Shown: positions 20,166 through 63,700 of the stretch, piece by piece
Numbering within the stretch: position 1 is the first letter of the stretch
Layout: every line of letters begins with the position of its first letter
DNA from: an uncultured Gammaproteobacteria bacterium
GTDB taxonomy: Bacteria > Pseudomonadota > Gammaproteobacteria > CAWCPV01
Direction: 5' to 3'
DNA: 64,000 bases
Assembly (NCBI GenBank): GCA_963797555.1
Contig: CAWCPV010000014.1
Location: forward strand, 256,001 to 320,000
Position numbers and translations under genes: made by a program
Notes under the pieces: generated by a model
The model's database searches: none
The model's input: only the letters and a program-made list of their open reading frames with translations
What the model was told of the DNA's origin: nothing

Positions 20166-20199
20166 TTGCCAGCCTGCCGATACCTGTATATAATTACAG
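20166..20199 (+). promoter_or_regulatory. Sigma70 promoter of lexA overlapped by an SOS box
   Basis: TTGCCA (20166-20171), 17 bp, TATAAT (20189-20194); CTGTATATAATTACAG (20184-20199) fits CTGT-N8-ACAG. Confidence 0.9.
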
Positions 20200-20216: not shown

Positions 20217-20819
20217 ATGCTCCCTCTGACCGAACGCCAGGCTCAAATCCTACAGTTGATCCGGGAACTTGTGGAGACGACGGGTATCCCTCCGACTCGC
20301 GCCGAGATCGCCCGCGCCCTGGGATTCCGATCCGTCAACGCCGCCGAGGATCACCTACGAGCGCTGCAACGCAAGGGCGTGATTGAGATCTTGCCAGGAG
20401 CCTCCCGCGGTATCCGTCTGAAAGACAGCCCGGGTATCCCGGTAGTGGGCCGCGTGGCGGCCGGTAGCCCCATCCTGGCGGAGCAACACATCGAGGGACG
20501 CTATCACTTGGACCGCACGTTGTTTCGACCGCCCGCCGACTACCTGCTGCGGGTACGCGGCATGAGCATGCGGGACGCCGGGATCCTGGACGGCGACCTG
20601 TTGGCCGTACACCGGATCTCCGAGGCGAGAAACGGTCAGATCGTGGTGGCCCGGCTGCATGACGAAGTCACCGTCAAGCGGTTCCGACGGCGGGGATACG
20701 AGGTGCTGCTCTTGCCGGAGAACCCAGAGTTCCAGCCCATCCGGGTGGATCTGCGTCGTGAAGCATTGGTGATCGAGGGGCGTGGCGTGGGGCTGATACG
20801 CAACGGCAGAGTCCTATGA
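20217..20819 (+). CDS. lexA: SOS repressor LexA
   Basis: PPTRAEIA...[15 protein letters not shown] cleavage site, GMSM, VTVKR. Confidence 0.96.
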
Positions 20820-21463
20820 ATCCGGTGTTGGAGAAGTTGCTCGCACACCCCGGCATCTTCCGCGCCACGCAAGGTCTCCGGAGCCCGGCAAACAATCTGC
20901 CGTCAGGATTCCCGGCTCTGGATGCCGAGTTGCCGGGAGGTGGCTGGCCCCTGGGGGCATTGACCGAGATCCTGCCTTCTCAGGAGGGTATCGGAGAGTT
21001 GCGGCTGCTGATGCCTGCCCTGGCACGCCTGAGCCGCGAGGGCCGTTGGCTGGTCTGGGTATCCCCTCCCCATGTCCCCTATGCCCCGGCTTTGCTGAGA
21101 TACCAAGTCAGTCTGGCGCATCTGCTGCTCGTCCATCCTTCGGACATCAGGGATCTGCTCTGGGCGGTGGAGCAGTCGCTGCGCTCCGGCGTCTGCGGAG
21201 CGGTCCTGGCCTGGCTGCAGGCAGCGGATGACAGGACCCTGCGGCGCCTGCAGCTAGCGGCTGAGGCGGGTGGCAGCTGGGGGGTGTTGTTCCGCCCGCC
21301 GCAAGCTGCCGGCCATGCCTCTCCGGCGGCCCTGCGCCTGGGCCTGGCGCCCGCATTCCAGGGAGTTACCGCGCACATCCTCAAACGGCGCGGCAGTTGG
21401 GCCGCCGAGCCAATGTTGGTGGGTTTCGAATCAGCAGAGCCGCTCGCCGCTGCCGCTCCCTGA
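20816..21463 (+). CDS. imuA: Translesion synthesis accessory protein ImuA
   Basis: [37 protein letters not shown]; ATGA overlap with lexA. Confidence 0.92.
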
Positions 21464-21482: not shown

Positions 21483-23072
21483 ATGTTGTGGCTGTGTCTC
21501 TTCCTGCCCCACCTTCCCCTGGAGATATATACCCGGGGCGACGTTGCGGAGGGGCCGCTGGCCGTCGCGCAGGGAGACTCGGAGCTTGTGAAGAAATCGT
21601 CGCGAGCGGCCCGAAGGCAAGGTAAGCGAAGCGCCGCGACGAGACCCCTCCAGCAGATTAGCGAGGAGCGAGCACCGCACAACGCCGCTATCGGGACGCG
21701 CAGCAGATTTATTCACAAGCTCTCAGGAAAACGCCAGATCTTGATGGCATGCAATACCCGGGCACGGAACTTGGGCGTGCGTCCCGGCATGACGTGCAGC
21801 GCCGCCCTTGCCCTGCTCCCCGAGCTGCGGGTGTTCCCCAGAGACGAGCAGGAAGAAGCGGCTATGCTGAAGCATATTGCCGCCTGGGCCGGCCAGTTCA
21901 CGTCCCTGGTCAGCCTGGTCCCGCCGCGTAGCGTACTGCTGGAGGCGGCAGGGAGCCTGAGACTATTCGGCGGTGCGGCGGGACTGTGCCGACGGGTCAA
22001 GGAGGAGATGAAGTCACTGGGATACGACATCTCCCTGGCGCTCGCGCCGACCCCCCTCGGCGCCTGGCTGCTAGCTTGCGCCGGCCTGGAGCGGTGCGTC
22101 ACGGATCTCCATCAGCTTCATCGTGAGGTGGCAGGGGTGTCTTTGCCCCTCCTCCAGCTTTCGGGCGAGATCCTCGAAGATTTGCGGGGTCTGGGTCTAC
22201 AAACCGTGGGGGACTGCCTGCGTCTTCCGCGGGAAGGACTGGCGCGGCGCTTCGGCCCGGGGCTGATCGACTACCTGGACAGAATGTTGGGCAGGACGCC
22301 GGACCCGCGCATTCCGTTCGAGCTCCCTCCCCGCTTCCGGGGTCACTTGGAGCTGCCCGCCGATACTTCTGCCTGTGAGGCACTGCTCTTCCCCCTCCGC
22401 CGCCTGCTCTCGGAGCTGACCGGATTCCTCCGGGCAAGGCAGGGGGGAATCCAACGTCTGGAGGTGAGGCTTGGCCATGGACGGGCGACCCCTAGCCGCC
22501 TGGCCATCGATCTGGTGGCTCCCAGCCGCGATCCCCAGCATCTGTTGGATCTGCTGCGTGAGCGCCTGGAACGGGTCAATCTGCCCGAGCCGGTCCAGGA
22601 CATCCAGCTCACGGCCGGCGAGGTGCTTAGCCTACCGCCCGAGAATCAGAGGCTGTTTCGAGAAGCTGGGAGGCAGCCAGATGACTGGAAGAGACTGGTG
22701 GAGCGGCTCCGTGCCCGTCTGGGCAGGAATGCTGTGCACGGTCTCAAGGCGGTTCCCGACTACCGCCCGGAGCGCGCCTGGTGCCACTGTCCCGCCGGAG
22801 AGACAGCATCGCAGACGCAGACACCCCCTCTCCCCCGCCCCCTCTGGCTGCTGCTCGACCCTTTACCTCTGTCGACGGTGGACGGTAGACCTTATCTGGA
22901 GGGCTCCCTAACTCTGCATCAGGGGCCCGAGTGCATCGAGAGCGGCTGGTGGGATGGCGCGGATGTGGTGCGTGATTATTACGTAGCGGCGAATCCCTTC
23001 GGCTCCCGGCTGTGGGTGTACCGAGAGCGCACAGGATCCAGAGGGTGGTTCCTGCATGGGGTCTTTGGATGA
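21483..23072 (+). CDS. imuB: Inactive Y-family polymerase ImuB, carrying an in-frame palindromic insertion
   Basis: MLWLCL start, GVRPGM, RPLWLL, GPECIESGWWD, RDYY, WFLHG. Confidence 0.92.
   Translation: MLWLCLFLPHLPLEIYTRGDVAEGPLAVAQGDSELVKKSSRAARRQGKRSAATRPLQQISEERAPHNAAIGTRSRFIHKLSGKRQILMACNTRARNLGVRPGMTCSAALALLPELRVFPRDEQEEAAMLKHIAAWAGQFTSLVSLVPPRSVLLEAAGSLRLFGGAAGLCRRVKEEMKSLGYDISLALAPTPLGAWLLACAGLERCVTDLHQLHREVAGVSLPLLQLSGEILEDLRGLGLQTVGDCLRLPREGLARRFGPGLIDYLDRMLGRTPDPRIPFELPPRFRGHLELPADTSACEALLFPLRRLLSELTGFLRARQGGIQRLEVRLGHGRATPSRLAIDLVAPSRDPQHLLDLLRERLERVNLPEPVQDIQLTAGEVLSLPPENQRLFREAGRQPDDWKRLVERLRARLGRNAVHGLKAVPDYRPERAWCHCPAGETASQTQTPPLPRPLWLLLDPLPLSTVDGRPYLEGSLTLHQGPECIESGWWDGADVVRDYYVAANPFGSRLWVYRERTGSRGWFLHGVFG
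21582..21722 (+). mobile_element. MITE-like palindromic element, copy A (141 bp), in frame within imuB
   Basis: 17-bp terminal inverted repeats with one mismatch (GAGCTTGTGAAGAAATC / GATTTATTCACAAGCTC), flanks TCG/TCA; homologous to 63287-63502. Confidence 0.9.
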
Positions 23073-23088
23073 GGGGGGTCGGCATCCC

Positions 23089-26000
23089 GTGTCACTGCCA
23101 TCGCCTGCATACGCGGAGCTGCACTGCCTCAGCAATTTCACCTTCCTGCGCGGGGCCTCCCACCCCGAGGAGCTGGTGGCCCGGGCGGCAAGGCTGGGCT
23201 ATGCGGCTCTGGCACTCACCGACGAGTGCTCTCTGGCAGGGGTGGTGCGCGCCCATGTCGCCGCCAAGGACGACCGCCTCAAGCTTCTCATAGGCAGCGA
23301 GGTCCGCCTGCAGGATGGACCGCGCCTGGTATTGCTGGCGATAAACCGGGAAGGCTATGGGAACCTCGCGGAGATCATCACCCAGGGGCGCAGGGCAGCC
23401 CCTAAGGGGCAGTATTGCCTCAGGCGTGCGGATCTGGCCGATGGCATGGCGGGATGTCTGGCCCTGCTTTGCCCTGATGAGGCGTTGGAGCTGGAGCACG
23501 CCCGGTGGGTCGGGGATATCTTCCGAGAAGGCGTCTGGCTCGCCGTGGAGCTCTTCGGGGGACCAGACGACGCTGGCCGACTCGCCGCCCTGCGGCGGCT
23601 GGGGGGAGAAGCCGGCCTTCCTCTGGTGGCGGCAGGGGACGTGCACATGCACGTGCGCGCACGGCGGGCACTACAGGATACCCTGACCGCCATCCGTCTG
23701 GGCTGCACCCTGACCGAGGCGGGCTTAAGGCTCCATCCCAACGGCGAACGCCATCTGAGGCCCCGCAGGGCGCTTGTCCGCTTCTATCCTCCCGAGCTGC
23801 TGGAAGAATCCCTGCGGGTCGTGGAGCGGTGCCGCTTCTCCCTCGACGAGCTGCGCTACGAGTATCCCCAGGAGCTGGTCCCGCCCGGACAGACCCCGGC
23901 GAGCTACCTGCGCTGCCTTACCGAGGCCGGCATTCGGGAGCGTTGGCCAGAAGGCCCGCCGGACAGGGTACACCGCTTGGTGGAGCACGAGCTGGATCTC
24001 ATCTCCGAGACTCGCTTACGAGCCCTATTTTCTGACGGTCCACGACATCGTCCGGTTCGCCCGCTCCCGGAGCATTCTGTGCCAAGGACGCGGCTCTGCG
24101 GCCAACTCCGTGGTGTGCTATTGCCTGGGAATTACCGAGGTAGACCCGGCGCGCATGGAAGTGCTGTTCGAGCGCTTCATCTCCAAGGAGCGCAACGAGC
24201 CGCCCGACATCGACGTGGACTTCGAGCACGAGAGACGCGAGGAGGTCATCCAGTACATCTACGAGAAGTACGGTCGGCATCGGGCGGCCCTGGCCGCCAC
24301 CGTCATCACATACCGGCCGAAGAGCGCGGTCCGGGACGTGGGCAAAGCCCTGGGGCTGAGCCTCTCACAGGTCGACCGTCTGGCCCGGACCCTGGCTTGG
24401 TGGGACAGCAAACACGTTGCCCCCGAGCGGATCCGGGAAGCCGGCCTCGAACTGGACAGCCCGGCGATCACCCGGCTGCTCGCCCTGGTACACACCCTGC
24501 TGGGTTTCCCGCGCCATCTCTCCCAGCACGTCGGCGGCTTAGTGATGTCCCAGAGCCCCCTGTGCCGCCTAGTCCCCATCGAGAACGCCACGATGCCTGG
24601 ACGGACCGTCATCCAGTGGGACAAGGACGACCTGGATTCCCTGGGTCTGCTCAAGGTGGATGTGCTGGGACTGGGTATGCTGTCCGCCATCCGGCGCGCC
24701 CTGGAGAGCGTCAGCCGCTTCCGCGGCAAGCGCCTCGACTTGGCCGACGTGCCGCCCGAAGACGCGGCCGTCTACCAGATGATGCAGCGAGCCGATACGG
24801 TAGGGGTATTCCAGATCGAATCGCGGGCGCAGATGGCCATGCTGCCCCGTCTCAAGCCCGCCTGTTTCTACGACTTGGTGATTGAGGTGGCCATCGTGCG
24901 CCCCGGCCCCATCCAGGGGAACATGGTGCATCCCTATTTGCGCCGCCGGCGGGGCGAGGAGCCCGTCACCTACCCCAGCCTGGAGGTGCGCGAGGTCCTG
25001 GAGCGGACCCTGGGCGTACCCATCTTCCAGGAGCAGGTGATCAAGCTCGCCGTGGTGGCGGCGGGCTTCTCCGCCGGCGAGGCCGAACGGCTGCGCCGAG
25101 CCATGGCGGCCTGGCGTCGTAAGGGGGGATTGGAGCCCTTCGAGAACAGACTCATCGAGGGGATGCGCAGCCGAGGCTATCCGGATCTCTTCGCCCGCCA
25201 AATCTTCCAGCAAATCCTGGGGTTCGGGGAGTATGGCTTTCCGGAGTCCCACGCGGCGAGCTTCGCCCTGCTCGTGTACGTGTCGGCCTGGCTCAAACGC
25301 CACGAGCCGGCCGCCTTCACCTGTGCTCTGCTCAACAGCCAGCCCATGGGGTTCTATGCCCCCTCCCAGCTTGTCCAGGATGCGACAAGACACGACGTTG
25401 AGGTGCGTCCGCCTGACGTGGCCGAGAGTCTCTGGGACTGCAGCCTGGAGCCGGATGCGAAAGGCGAGCCAGCGCTGCGCCTGGGGCTGCGGATGATCAA
25501 GGGCCTGAGCCGACAGGCTGGCGAACGTCTGCTCACCGCCCGTCATGAGCGCCCCTTCACCAGCGTCCAGGACTTGATCCGGCGCAGCGGGCTGAACCGC
25601 TCCGATGTTCAGGCGCTAACCGCAGGTGGTGCCCTGGAGAGCCTCGCAGGGAACCGCCATCAAGCCCGTTGGCAGGTGCTCGGCGTGGAGCCGTCTTTCC
25701 CTTTGCTGGCGAATACTGCCATCTGCGAGCCCATGTCGCCGCTCCCTGTGCCTACGGAAGGCCAAGACATCGCAGCCGACTATGCGAGCCTGGGCCTCTC
25801 CCTGCGCCGCCACCCCCTGGCCCTCCTACGTCAGCAACTGCATGGGCTGCATGTGCTGAGCGCCGCAAAGTTGCATGCCGTGCCCCATGGTCGTCGAGTA
25901 CGTACGGCAGGTCTTGTGATCACTCGTCAGCGCCCCGCCTCGGCCTCGGGCGTTACTTTTCTCACCCTGGAAGACGAGACCGGTACCGTCAACGTGGTGG

Positions 26001-26173
26001 TCTGGCGCGACCTGGCCGATCGACAGCGAGCACCCCTGTTGGGCGCCCAACTGTTGAGCGTGTCCGGAGTCTTGGAGCGCGACGGTCAGGTGGTGCACCT
26101 GATCGCCTCTCGCTTAGAGGACTATAGCGCCCTCTTGGGCAGACTGGTGACCCGCTCGCGAGACTTCCGCTGA
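23089..26173 (+). CDS. dnaE2: Error-prone DNA polymerase III alpha (one extra base near 24010)
   Basis: [53 protein letters not shown]-terminal SRDFR; start approximate. Confidence 0.93.
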
Positions 26174-36108: not shown

Positions 36109-36216
36109 AGCTGCGGTCCGCGAATATACTCTCAGAGCGTGTGAAGAGACACGGTGCGCGGTTAGAGCCGCTCCTGCGCAATTGCTTTTTCGGCTGCAGT
36201 ATCCTCTGCCTTACGT

Positions 36217-37631
36217 CATCCCATTACACACAACTTGATGACAATCGTGTAACATCCTGACATAACGTCACAAGATGGGGTGTCGGGATGAGCTGGGCGG
36301 CGGAGGAATTTAGGGGCATCGATTTGGGCGACAAGCGGCTGGGCAAGCGGGCCGTGTTGCTTGCCGAGCGGCTGGCGGAGAAGCCGAGCGCGAGCATTCC
36401 CGGAGCGTGTGGGGGCTGGGCCGAGACCCAGGGAGCTTACCGGTTTTTTGCCCACGACGAGATGGACTGGCGGGACATCCTGGAGCCGCACTGGCAGTGT
36501 TCTGCGGCCCGGATGCGGGAGCACGAAATCGTGCTGTGCATCCAAGACACCACGGAGGTGGACTTCAACGGGCAGGACATCGCTGGCCTGGGGCCGTTGA
36601 GCTATGAGGCGCAACGCGGTATGTACCTGCATCCGACGTATGCCGTGACGCTCGCGCGCGAGCCCTTGGGCGTGCTGGATGCGTGGATGTGGGCACGCGA
36701 GCCGAAGGACGCCGAAGGCCCTCGGGGAGGTGTTCTGGAAAGCACCCGCTGGGTGGAGGGCTATGAGCGCATGGCAGAGCTGGCGTCCGAACTTCCACAG
36801 ACCCGCCTGGTGTATGTAGCCGACCGGGAGGCTGACATCGTAGCCCTGATGGCCAAAGCGCGCGACCTGGGGCAGCCGGCCGACTGGTTGGTCCGCTCCC
36901 GGCACAACCGTGCGCTGCCCGAGGGCGGCAAGCTGTGGGAGGAGGTGACCCGAGGCGAATGCCTGGGCGGGATACGCTTCACGATGCCGTCGCGCCACGG
37001 ACAAAAAGCGCGGCAAGTCTGCCAACAGGTGTGGGCGAGGCGTGTGAAGCTCTCCGACGGCAAGGGGGGTCGGTTGGAGGCCACCTGCATCGTGGCCCGG
37101 GAAGTGGACGCGCCAGCAGGCGTGAAGCCCGTCGAATGGCGCCTGCTCACCAACCGTGAGGCCGCCAGCTTGGAGGCGGCGGCCGAGCTCATCGACTGGT
37201 ATCGCGCCCGCTGGGAGATTGAACTCTTCTTCCACGTGCTGAAGAACGCCTGCCGCGTGGAGGCGTTGCAGCTCAGCACCATGGAACGCCTGGAACGGGC
37301 GCTGGCGCTATTCATGGTGGTCGCCTGGCGCATCGCCCGGCTGATGCGCCTGGGGCGCACCTGTCCGGACTTGGAGGCCGAGTGGTTGTTCGAGCGCGAG
37401 GAGTGGGAGGCAGCCTTCCTCCTGAACAAGAAACGCCCACCGAAGACGCCACCCCGACTGAACCAAGTGGTGCATCTCATCGCCAGGCTCGGCGGCTTCC
37501 TGGGGCGCAAGGGCGACGGCGAGCCCGGCGTGAAAACCCTCTGGCAAGGGCTCACGCGCGTCATGGACTTCGCGGCAGGACTGCACTACGCGCGTGAGGC
37601 TCAAGTCCTTTGAGTTGTGTGTAATGGGATG
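36217..37631 (+). mobile_element. Complete IS4-family (IS50/Tn5-like) insertion sequence, 1415 bp
   Basis: Perfect 19-bp TIRs CATCCCATTACACACAACT / AGTTGTGTGTAATGGGATG; 9-bp target duplication GCCTTACGT (36208-36216, 37632-37640). Confidence 0.96.
36288..37613 (+). CDS. IS4-family transposase
   Basis: LGDKRL, IQDTT, ADREAD, YRARWEIELFFHVLK, LGGFLGRKGDGEPG. Confidence 0.96.
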   Translation: MSWAAEEFRGIDLGDKRLGKRAVLLAERLAEKPSASIPGACGGWAETQGAYRFFAHDEMDWRDILEPHWQCSAARMREHEIVLCIQDTTEVDFNGQDIAGLGPLSYEAQRGMYLHPTYAVTLAREPLGVLDAWMWAREPKDAEGPRGGVLESTRWVEGYERMAELASELPQTRLVYVADREADIVALMAKARDLGQPADWLVRSRHNRALPEGGKLWEEVTRGECLGGIRFTMPSRHGQKARQVCQQVWARRVKLSDGKGGRLEATCIVAREVDAPAGVKPVEWRLLTNREAASLEAAAELIDWYRARWEIELFFHVLKNACRVEALQLSTMERLERALALFMVVAWRIARLMRLGRTCPDLEAEWLFEREEWEAAFLLNKKRPPKTPPRLNQVVHLIARLGGFLGRKGDGEPGVKTLWQGLTRVMDFAAGLHYAREAQVL

Positions 37632-37669
37632 GCCTTACGTCGGTACGGCGAAAAATTCATGAGATCTCA

Positions 37670-37788
37670 GTGCTTGCAAAGCAATCGTCGCGAGGGGACG
37701 CCAAAAAGGGCGTAACGTACATGGACTTACGTCCATGCACCGCGCAACGTCGCTATCGGGACACGCCAGCAGATTTATTCACGAACTG
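37670..37788 (+). mobile_element. MITE-like element, degenerate copy D
   Basis: TCA|GTGCTTGCAAAGCAATCGTCGCGAG ... CGCTATCGGGACACGCCAGCAGATTTATTCACGAACTG aligns with copies A and B. Confidence 0.75.
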
Positions 37789-41531: not shown

Positions 41532-41720
41532 AACGTTATAAAGAAATCGTCGCGGCGGGGCGAGTGCGCGGCGCACGGAGCGCAGCGACGAGCGACCGAA
41601 TGGCAGGATAGCCATTCGGCACGTCCGCAGGACGCCCCGAAGGGGTGGTGTACAGGGAGGTACGCCATGACACCGCGCTACGCCGCCATCGGGACGTGCG
41701 GCAGATCCAGTCGCAACCTC
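41532..41720 (+). mobile_element. MITE-like element, copy C (189 bp) with 75-bp GGA-hairpin module
   Basis: Decayed TIRs, flanks TCA/TCG; 41596-41670 nearly identical to 63377-63451. Confidence 0.85.
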
Positions 41721-62436: not shown

Positions 62437-63700
62437 TCAGCCCTCTTCGGGCTCGCGCGGCAGCGGCTCACCAGAAACCGAGTTTCGTCGCGCTGTAGCG
62501 ATCACCCGTGATTTCCATACCAGATAGACCGCTGGAATCACCGCAAGCGTGAGAAGGGCGACACTGACCATACCGCCCACCATGGGTGCCGCGATGCGCC
62601 GCATGACCTCCGATCCGGCCCCGTTCCTTAGCAGAATGGGCAGCAGCGCGGCGACGATCGCCGCCTTGGTCATGGTGACCGGCCGCAACCGCAGCAGCGC
62701 GCCCTCCACCACCGCAGCCTTGACGTCCTCCGGCGTCAGGCCGGCCGCGCCGCGCACCTCCCGCCGCCGCGCCAACGCTCGATCTAGGTAGAGCATCATC
62801 ACCACCCCGATCTCCACCACCACCCCGCCCAAGGCGATGAAGCCGATCGCCGAGGCCACCGAGAGATGGTAGCCGAGCAGGTACATGAGCCCGAAACCGC
62901 CCACCAGCGCGAGCGGCAAGGTCGCTAGGATGATAAGCATCCCCGTCAGGGTGCGGAAGTTGAGATACAGCAGCACCAAGATGAAGGCGAGGGTGAGCGG
63001 CACCACCAGCCACAGCCGCTCCTTCGCCCGCTCCCACTGCTCGTACTGGCCTGACCAGGCGACCGAGTAGCCCGGCAACAGCTCGACCCGGTCCGCCACC
63101 GCCTGTTTCGCCGCGGCCACCGACGATTCCCGGACCATGCTCAGAGACGGGCTCGCACCAAGGCGTCGGCTAACGCCGCGGGCTCGCACCAATGACATGT
63201 CGGTCATCTCGGCGCTGCCGCTCACCTTGTACCTCATCGGCGTTTCTTCCAGAACACCTGGCCCGCGCGCGGGATTGGGTGGCTCAGAGCTTGTGAAGAA
63301 ATCGTCGCGAGCGGCCCGAGAGCAAGGCGTACGGAGCGCAGCGACGAGACATATCAAGTAGATAGGCGAGGAGCGACCGAATGGCAGGACAGCCATTCGG
63401 CACGTCTGCGGGACGCCCCGAAGGGGTGGCGTACAGGGAGGTACGCCATGAACACCGCGCAACGCCGCTATCGGGACACGCACCAGATTTATTCACAAGC
63501 TCTCAGTCAGGTTCATGCCGCCTACTGCGGTGGCGATGACCTCGTGCACGTCTGCGACGTTCAGGCCGAGCCTCACCATTGCCCGGCGATCGGGGGTGAT
63601 CACGATGTATCTGCCCGCCGACAGCCGCTCGGCGATCGCCGGCCAGAAGCGCGAGTTTCATCGGTTCTCCTCTTCCTGCCGGCGAGTCCGGTCTCTGGCG
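62437..63700 (-). pseudogene. cusA: CusA/CzcA heavy-metal RND transporter fragments
   Basis: GRYIVITPDR...AVGGMNL (about 63505-63640) and PGYSVAWSGQYE...EGALLRLRPVTMT...RIAAPMVGG; N-terminal part missing, interrupted by the element. Confidence 0.78.
63287..63502 (+). mobile_element. MITE-like element, copy B (216 bp)
   Basis: Same 17-bp TIRs as copy A, exact TCA duplication on both sides, 75-bp internal module at 63377-63451. Confidence 0.92.

Follow-up and report, generated by a model that had tools for sequence, protein, structure and literature searches.

A palindromic mobile element read in frame within imuB of an uncultured gammaproteobacterium: probably a tolerated insertion from a mainly intergenic family

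A palindromic element of 141 bp lies, in frame and free of stop codons, near the start of the imuB gene in a DNA stretch from an uncultured gammaproteobacterium. This raises the question of how it came to be there, and whether it belongs to a family that regularly adds peptides to proteins in the manner of the Rickettsia palindromic elements (RPE). The window, by which we mean the whole stretch of 64 000 nucleotides analysed here, corresponds to positions 256001–320000 of contig C14 in genome G000, an assembly of 5.35 Mb in 20 contigs with 65% G+C and a marker completeness of 84.6% (C with a number denotes a contig of this genome throughout). The element proved to be a MITE (a transposable element of the miniature inverted-repeat type), which probably entered imuB once, in a TCA codon, and has been tolerated since as a near-neutral accident in a permissive loop without having been shaped for life within a protein. 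A first-pass annotation, made from the sequence, had described a mobile palindrome inserted in frame, without a stop codon and tolerated or selected, and had placed it in an RPE-like, protein-inserting family; the description held, including toleration, whereas the proposed family did not.

Anatomy of the insertion

The imuB-borne element occupies window positions 21582–21722 on the + strand and starts directly 3′ of codon 33. It is the 141-bp short form of the family, bounded by 17-bp terminal inverted repeats (TIRs), GAGCTTGTGAAGAAATC at 21582–21598 and its near-perfect reverse complement GATTTATTCACAAGCTC at 21706–21722, which are complementary at 16 of 17 positions, and it folds as a single long hairpin. 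The triplets on either side, TCG at 21579–21581 (+; Ser33) and TCA at 21723–21725 (+; Ser81), differ by one synonymous base. Across the genome a perfect 3-bp duplication was found in 42 of 66 two-ended copies, TGA/TGA in 24 and TCA/TCA in 18, which gives TSA as the target of the family; the TCG/TCA pair of imuB is thus a target duplication with one synonymous change. Element and duplication together add 144 bases, or 48 codons, to imuB, the element itself being read as residues 34–80, and the insert-bearing frame is open from the ATG at 21483 to 23072, corresponding to 529 amino acids. All of this agrees with the first-pass annotation as regards the palindrome, the 17-bp TIRs, the position after codon 33, the TCG/TCA flanks and the added peptide with its duplicated serine, which is free of stops in the imuB copy.

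The insert peptide is strongly basic (isoelectric point 12, charge +9). A weakening of the hairpin that would ease translation was considered and rejected, the imuB copy having a folding energy of −55.3 kcal/mol, within the range of −44.7 to −72.7 kcal/mol of 21 other copies. No promoter-like or terminator-like sites were seen in the element, and Rfam gave no match to the element or anywhere else in the window.

The insert is absent from orthologues and shared with a sister allele

When ImuB was aligned with its orthologues from related genomes, all nine showed a gap exactly at the position of the insert. Two sequences were left out of this alignment, namely L006, from an unpublished genome, where a contig end cuts the gene and the match begins at residue 169, and L012, probably another Y-family gene (27% identity). 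The insert columns were likewise empty in all 42 database homologues (49–71% identity), so that the one clean gap foreseen by the first-pass annotation was obtained in both sets. With the insert removed, the local sequence AVAQGDSGKRQILMACN fits the ImuB family consensus. The nearest insert-less proteins found by BLASTP were only 64% and 62% identical, and there is consequently no close empty-site relative by which the insertion could be dated. No close sequenced relative of the organism appears to be among the genomes compared; the 40 nearest share only the class, each coming from a different family.

The same insert is encoded in a different metagenome assembly by P0122, a ‘protein ImuB’ of 529 amino acids from the 90% cluster of the gene’s database call. 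P0122 aligns with the ImuB of the window without gaps and is identical at 504 of 529 residues (95%), the differences being distributed as 3 of 48 in the insert (R45K, L56P and H78R), 0 of 33 in the N-terminal part and 22 of 448 in the remainder. This second lineage, in which the insert has also stayed open, supports toleration in the mutasome scaffold. The region was further compared with contigs of four marsh-metagenome runs, which are ∼2–3% divergent from the window. One of them (X3 record 18) extends from the right flank in imuB 38 letters into the element, and three more records extend 27–30 letters into it from either flank, which is where 31-mer graphs break at repeats and just under the 31-letter bridging rule used. 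No empty-site joint skipping the element was listed among these contigs. To judge from P0122 and the marsh contigs, the insertion took place before at least two haplotypes, and probably three, had separated. The sister allele was also sought at the DNA level among metagenome contigs, from which records close to this genome may be missing; a 31-base stretch of the element centre had no exact match there, and a protein-guided scan for the contig of P0122 gave 80 loci, all of 37–50% identity and none of them the contig sought.

These data also bear on an assembly artefact, i.e. a repeat copy misplaced into imuB, for which it can be said that the assembly contains indel errors and that the element is a high-copy repeat. 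Yet the independent assembly encodes the same insert with substitutions of its own, the short-read contigs of other runs pass from unique imuB sequence into both element ends, and the imuB copy has a unique centre together with a proper target duplication. We therefore attach hardly any probability to an artefact.

Nearly all other copies lie between genes

Searches of the genome with nhmmer, using profiles of the short and the long form, gave 220 and 233 matches, respectively. As these merge to 190 loci, the family is far more numerous than expected by chance; 46 loci belong to a size class of ∼141 bp and 30 to one of ∼216 bp. The loci were placed on a home-made gene map based on codon usage (4178 genes, 72% coding), which undercalls, in part as a result of assembly indels. 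On this map 183 of the 190 loci lay between genes, five across gene ends and two inside genes. The imuB element is the only whole copy within a gene, the other inside locus being a 49-bp fragment situated 76 bases from the 3′ end of its gene. In a control independent of gene calling, both 180-base flanks were coding-like on the same strand at only 4 of 188 loci, as compared with 831 of 2000 random sites, and all four of these loci lie between adjacent same-strand genes. A single whole copy of 190 loci inside a gene and such an outcome of the flank test speak against an RPE-like family of protein-inserting elements.

A six-frame scan for read-through with coding flanks detected no case besides imuB. 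Among the candidates discarded were 112 combinations of locus and frame that stayed open for 90 bases or more on each side, none of which had clearly coding flanks on both sides, long spurious frames being common because of the high G+C content. None of 11 full copies checked in other genomes was intragenic, and two external copies with open read-through were also dismissed, one being located upstream of metK and the other directly after a stop codon.

The form of the element does not preclude a coding role. Of the 61 paired copies no longer than 240 bp, 41 had a length divisible by three, with 141 and 216 bp dominating. Among the 39 full-length copies of the short form, the young master was one of 28 in which one particular reading phase was open; the phase used in imuB was open in nine of the 39. 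That copies so well suited to reading frames are almost never intragenic points to selection against them or to a target preference, rather than to incapacity.

Apart from this, 10 of 61 paired copies had inserted exactly at the TGA with which a called gene ends, one copy of the duplication constituting the stop (examples are C3:32601-32741, C3:621457-621597 and C14:344472-344703), and a copy in a Thauera metagenome-assembled genome (L097:401-543) likewise sits on a TGA stop. Insertion into TGA regenerates the stop, which may explain the harmlessness of the family.

The compared codon and the divergent centre

According to the first-pass annotation, the frame that reads AGA CCC CTC CAG CAG in imuB reads AGA CAT ATC AAG TAG in the copy at 63287, and the absence of the TAG was thought to be tied to coding. 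Both readings are correct. The copy in question (63287–63502, +) is an intergenic long form of 216 bp with a TCA/TCA duplication and TAG at the compared codon. Over 134 aligned matches, a few of which are doubtful alignments, this codon was TAG in 48, TCG in 27, CAG in 16 (imuB included), TGG in 12, TAA in two, TGA in one and something else in the rest. Hence a stop is lacking at this codon in 82 of the 133 other copies, 15 of which carry CAG, so that the supposed tie to coding falls away; TAG marks the youngest, near-identical burst of copies and not non-coding copies as such. These counts come close to the outcome, CAG in most intergenic copies too and hence no link with coding, that the first-pass annotation had itself set against its proposal.

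Compared with the young master, the imuB copy shows 16 differences, 15 of which fall within positions 34–80 (Fisher test, p given as 0.0 to six decimal places). Four silent codon changes are found in its 16 central codons and none in its 31 terminal codons. The differences of 38 other diverged copies are evenly spread, with 0.18, 0.21 and 0.21 per site over the three parts. No imuB-type centre was found elsewhere in the assembly, where the best candidate agreed at 34 of 47 positions without any long exact word; a gene-conversion donor within the genome was thus rejected as well, the matching 11-mers being scattered chance matches only. In the copies from other genomes both ends are retained and the centre varies, although of the two ends only the left one was fixed by the search pattern. 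Because the silent changes cluster in the centre and the foreign copies vary there too, the central divergence was probably inherited, the imuB copy deriving from an active sublineage of its own. Most likely its source copy already had the unusual centre and lacked the stop.

The same centre could be taken as a sign of co-option, in that a basic loop of charge +9 on the fingers side would be advantageous through contact with DNA or through a new interface, the centre having been remodelled adaptively and the stop lost. Fifteen of the 16 differences do lie within 47 central bases for which the genome holds no donor, two of the substitutions, E to R and A to K, make the peptide more positive, the allele is open in two lineages with no empty site listed, and this is the sole copy of ∼190 retained inside a gene. 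However, the four silent changes clustering in the same centre, with none in the terminal parts, indicate a different ancestry and not selection on the peptide, and the copies in other genomes show the same combination of conserved ends and variable centre. Furthermore, between the two alleles the insert has diverged no more slowly than the remaining protein (3/48 as against 22/448), residues 49–79 have no confident modelled structure, and CAG at the compared codon already exists in 15 other copies. Co-option is therefore considered unlikely, and so, to a slightly greater degree, is its more specific form, a domesticated flexible arm of charge +9, retained long enough for diverged lineages to share it, in which 15 changes in 47 central bases would have followed the insertion, removing the stop and raising the charge, and which would help the mutasome to hold DNA or a partner.

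Structural placement of the insert

Escherichia coli Pol IV chains align with ImuB from residue 83 onward, starting at Pol IV residue 38, and the insertion site aligns with the GGSRERRG turn of Pol IV. By this alignment the insert lies at the turn of the β2–β3 hairpin of the N-terminal polymerase core. An AlphaFold2 model built from a 44-sequence alignment had a mean predicted local distance difference test (pLDDT) score of 83.5 and a predicted template modelling (pTM) score of 0.72. In this model, strands 26–30 and 86–90 border the insert, and a weakly supported helix covers residues 33–47. The ten-residue blocks from 31 to 80 had mean pLDDT values of 57, 51, 37, 32 and 44, residues 49–79 being below 50, and the blocks from 91 to 380 reached at least 90. 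The model, with its confident core and flanking strands and its low-scoring insert, thus predicts what the first-pass annotation had suggested modelling, a tolerated surface loop that would be largely disordered.

The MITE family and its putative partner

The family has TIRs that are conserved from copy to copy, a fixed 3-bp duplication, small size, no transposase gene and many copies, and is a MITE family. A 1.63-kb insertion sequence (IS) resident in the genome has 15 of 17 TIR bases in common with it, is likewise flanked by TCA/TCA or TGA/TGA duplications and is present in at least five copies, at C2:6614-8244, C4:839761-841389, C7:439180-440804, C8:89586-91214 and C3:1025979-1027608, which are 86–97% identical among themselves. 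Its transposase belongs to the IS1182 family (NF033551, 374 bits with a cut-off of 270), and is found in two frames in the copy on C2 and as a frame of 457 amino acids in that on C4. Apart from these ends and the TSA duplication the resident IS and the MITE differ, the MITE carrying no transposase and the two sequences being unrelated beyond ∼17 bases. On this basis the IS is likely to be the source of a transposase that would mobilize the MITE in trans.

Outside this genome, the exact 28-base left end was found in 13 stretches from 11 genomes of Betaproteobacteria (Tepidiphilus, Thauera, Azoarcus, Accumulibacter, Sulfuritalea and others), 11 of the 13 stretches carrying a full-length element. 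A BLAST search with the element, run on an even sample of the class, was positive in 17 of 399 other genomes, with one further genome unscored and with G039, G140 and G307 being unpublished ones among the 17. The patchy distribution suggests that IS and MITE may have spread horizontally as a pair. The occurrences are dispersed over many families of the class (L095-L107; G094, G140, G248, G394 and others), and some other genomes gave 60–340 MITE candidates at first look. A literature search by the 17-base TIR, and for MITEs tied to IS1182 or Rhodocyclales, returned nothing on the family, which, as far as this limited search goes, appears to be undescribed.

The SOS cassette and the state of imuB

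The insert-bearing gene is the third in a cassette of the order lexA-imuA-imuB-dnaE2, an order confirmed by models for LexA, ImuA and the error-prone polymerase. All four genes are on the + strand. A LexA (SOS) box, CTGTATATAATTACAG, is located at 20184–20199 (+), 17 bases upstream of lexA; CTGT-N8-ACAG, which we take to be the consensus of this box, occurs three times in the window with 0.71 matches expected, and one of the three sits in front of lexA. The first gene, lexA (20217–20819), matched TIGR00498 with 238.2 bits (cut-off 110.95), and imuA (20816–21463) matched NF033429 (ImuA_translesion) with 221.9 bits (cut-off 150), with a SulA-like Pfam match in addition. The 529 codons of imuB (21483–23072), including the 48 of the insert, encode a Y-family IMS core (PF00817, 58 bits, cut-off 23.2) to which E. 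coli Pol IV (DinB) chains also match (E ∼1e-4), the DinB alignment beginning at residue 83; the name ImuB is based on homologues called ‘protein ImuB’ by their sources and on the operon context. The last gene, dnaE2 (imuC; 23056–26173), is split over two frames whose products matched NF004225 with 302.9 and 1104.5 bits. The frame break consists of a single extra base near window position 24010, and this base is missing, at full depth, from the covering contigs of all four related marsh-metagenome runs. The frameshift would thus probably be an assembly error, or at most private to this assembly, and the SOS cassette therefore looks intact.

The course of events that we consider probable would begin with a single MITE insertion into a serine codon of imuB, the triplet TCA, probably by transposition in trans via the resident IS1182-family transposase, as suggested by the near-identical ends and the TSA duplication. 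The 144 bases, or 48 codons, have no stop in the landing phase, and imuB stayed open; a basic, largely disordered loop is predicted to emerge from the β2–β3 turn of a presumably catalytically dead Y-family core. The allele is kept open in at least two lineages, which differ at 5% of ImuB residues, within an otherwise intact SOS cassette.

Several points weigh against this course of events. The public gene calls of NCBI/ENA type start imuB at Met88 (window position 21744), which gives a protein of 442 amino acids (P0002), and in the calls of the second assembly P0123 likewise starts at Met88, the gene being split further there (P0123 and P0124). Among the differences from the marsh contigs that were listed (40 of 118), the single-nucleotide polymorphisms (SNPs) in imuB were 9 synonymous and 12 non-synonymous, suggesting only moderate constraint. 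The read-through product is one predicted from the sequence, and its retained function cannot be shown by a structural model. The evenly spread divergence of the other copies makes the pattern in imuB exceptional within the genome, where no similar centre was found, and the source sublineage of that centre is one that we infer and did not see. Finally, the gene map by which copies were assigned to intergenic regions was home-made and drawn on an assembly with indel errors.

The gene calls would also fit an imuB disabled or truncated by the insertion, either by a restart at Met88 without the first β strands or as part of a decaying cassette with a leftover frame, and the frameshift of dnaE2 in this assembly and the excess of non-synonymous over synonymous changes among the imuB SNPs listed point in the same direction. 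Against this stand the absence of the extra dnaE2 base from the contigs of all four runs, the first 33 residues, which are identical in the two alleles and still match the conserved ImuB N-terminus, and the insert of 48 codons, which is still open in both alleles. In addition, a strong Shine–Dalgarno-like run (GGGGGAG) precedes the ATG at 21483, which lies 20 bases after imuA, Met88 has no comparable run, and the element contains no promoter-like or terminator-like site. The SNPs, counted as above, were 3 synonymous and 1 non-synonymous in the first 33 codons and 10 synonymous and 6 non-synonymous in dnaE2, which is weak evidence of constraint, apparently looser on imuB. JGI calls the sister allele at its full 529 amino acids. 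The in-frame repeat misleads the prediction of the imuB start. We think a disabled or truncated imuB improbable. The tolerated insertion thus remains the reading that we prefer.

Relation to known systems

In-frame MITE fusions are established for RPE, ERIC, BOX and QMITE (PMC10969869; PMC3184786; PMC5896051). RPE resemble the imuB element in being palindromes of ∼100–150 bp that lie in frame in housekeeping-type genes and add a peptide loop without breaking the protein. They differ in that nearly half of their copies are within genes (Ogata et al., 2000, as summarized in PMC10969869 and PMC3184786), as against one of ∼190 here; the comparison is one of described features. Unlike RPE as portrayed in these summaries, the present MITE family has clear TIRs, a 3-bp TSA duplication, a candidate IS1182-family partner and a free-living proteobacterial host of 65% G+C. 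As far as the summaries go, the imuB case works like an RPE insertion, and the family lacks the RPE hallmark of frequent coding copies.

A parallel in distribution is offered by intragenic ERIC/YPAL elements (Delihas, 2007), pneumococcal BOX elements (Croucher, 2011) and Coxiella QMITE1 and QMITE2 (PMC5896051), which are described as mostly intergenic, some copies being fused in frame to genes, internally or at the C-terminus. In Coxiella, copies of QMITE1 encode very basic peptides, the imuB insert likewise being basic, and QMITE2 copies overlap the 3′ ends of genes, as copies here sit on stop codons (PMC5896051). ERIC/YPAL, BOX and QMITE are nevertheless other sequence families with other duplications and hosts, and imuB is not mentioned in the passages on them. 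The host locus shares with the ImuA-ImuB-DnaE2 mutasome, as outlined in PMC6511836, the order lexA-imuA-imuB-dnaE2, a presumably catalytically dead Y-family scaffold and a C-terminal ImuB-C region; ImuB here differs by 48 extra residues in its N-terminal polymerase-like core.

The mechanism is an ordinary one, nothing observed requires co-option of the basic loop, and the insertion in imuB appears to be an accident of a familiar type that has been tolerated. In-frame MITE insertion is one route to new protein loops, most documented cases of which come from reduced intracellular genomes. The present locus is a clean case in a large, G+C-rich, free-living genome, with a defined family, a TSA target, a candidate transposase, two diverged alleles and a host protein that can be assayed. 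One copy in a gene out of ∼190 also indicates strong filtering of genic insertions, and the disagreement of gene callers on imuB (442 versus 529 amino acids) indicates that such inserts cause truncated annotations. If domestication were true, imuB would offer an example, open to dating, of how a functional part of a protein arose from a mobile element in a bacterium that lives freely.

Other family sequences in the window

Two more loci of the family were matched by the profiles in the window, both on the + strand: a further diverged copy at 41536–41719 (C14:297536-297719) and a right-end fragment at 37672–37786 (C14:293672-293786), which adjoins a Tn5-like IS. The transposase of this IS, at 36288–37613 (+), is of the Tn5/IS50 type, with Tnp_DNA_bind, DDE_Tnp_1 and Dimer_Tnp_Tn5 domains, and is unrelated to the MITE. 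Family-like ends at 36135–37788 were considered as delimiting a partner IS and were rejected as a chance pairing, the transposase inside being Tn5-like and the ends having no duplication.

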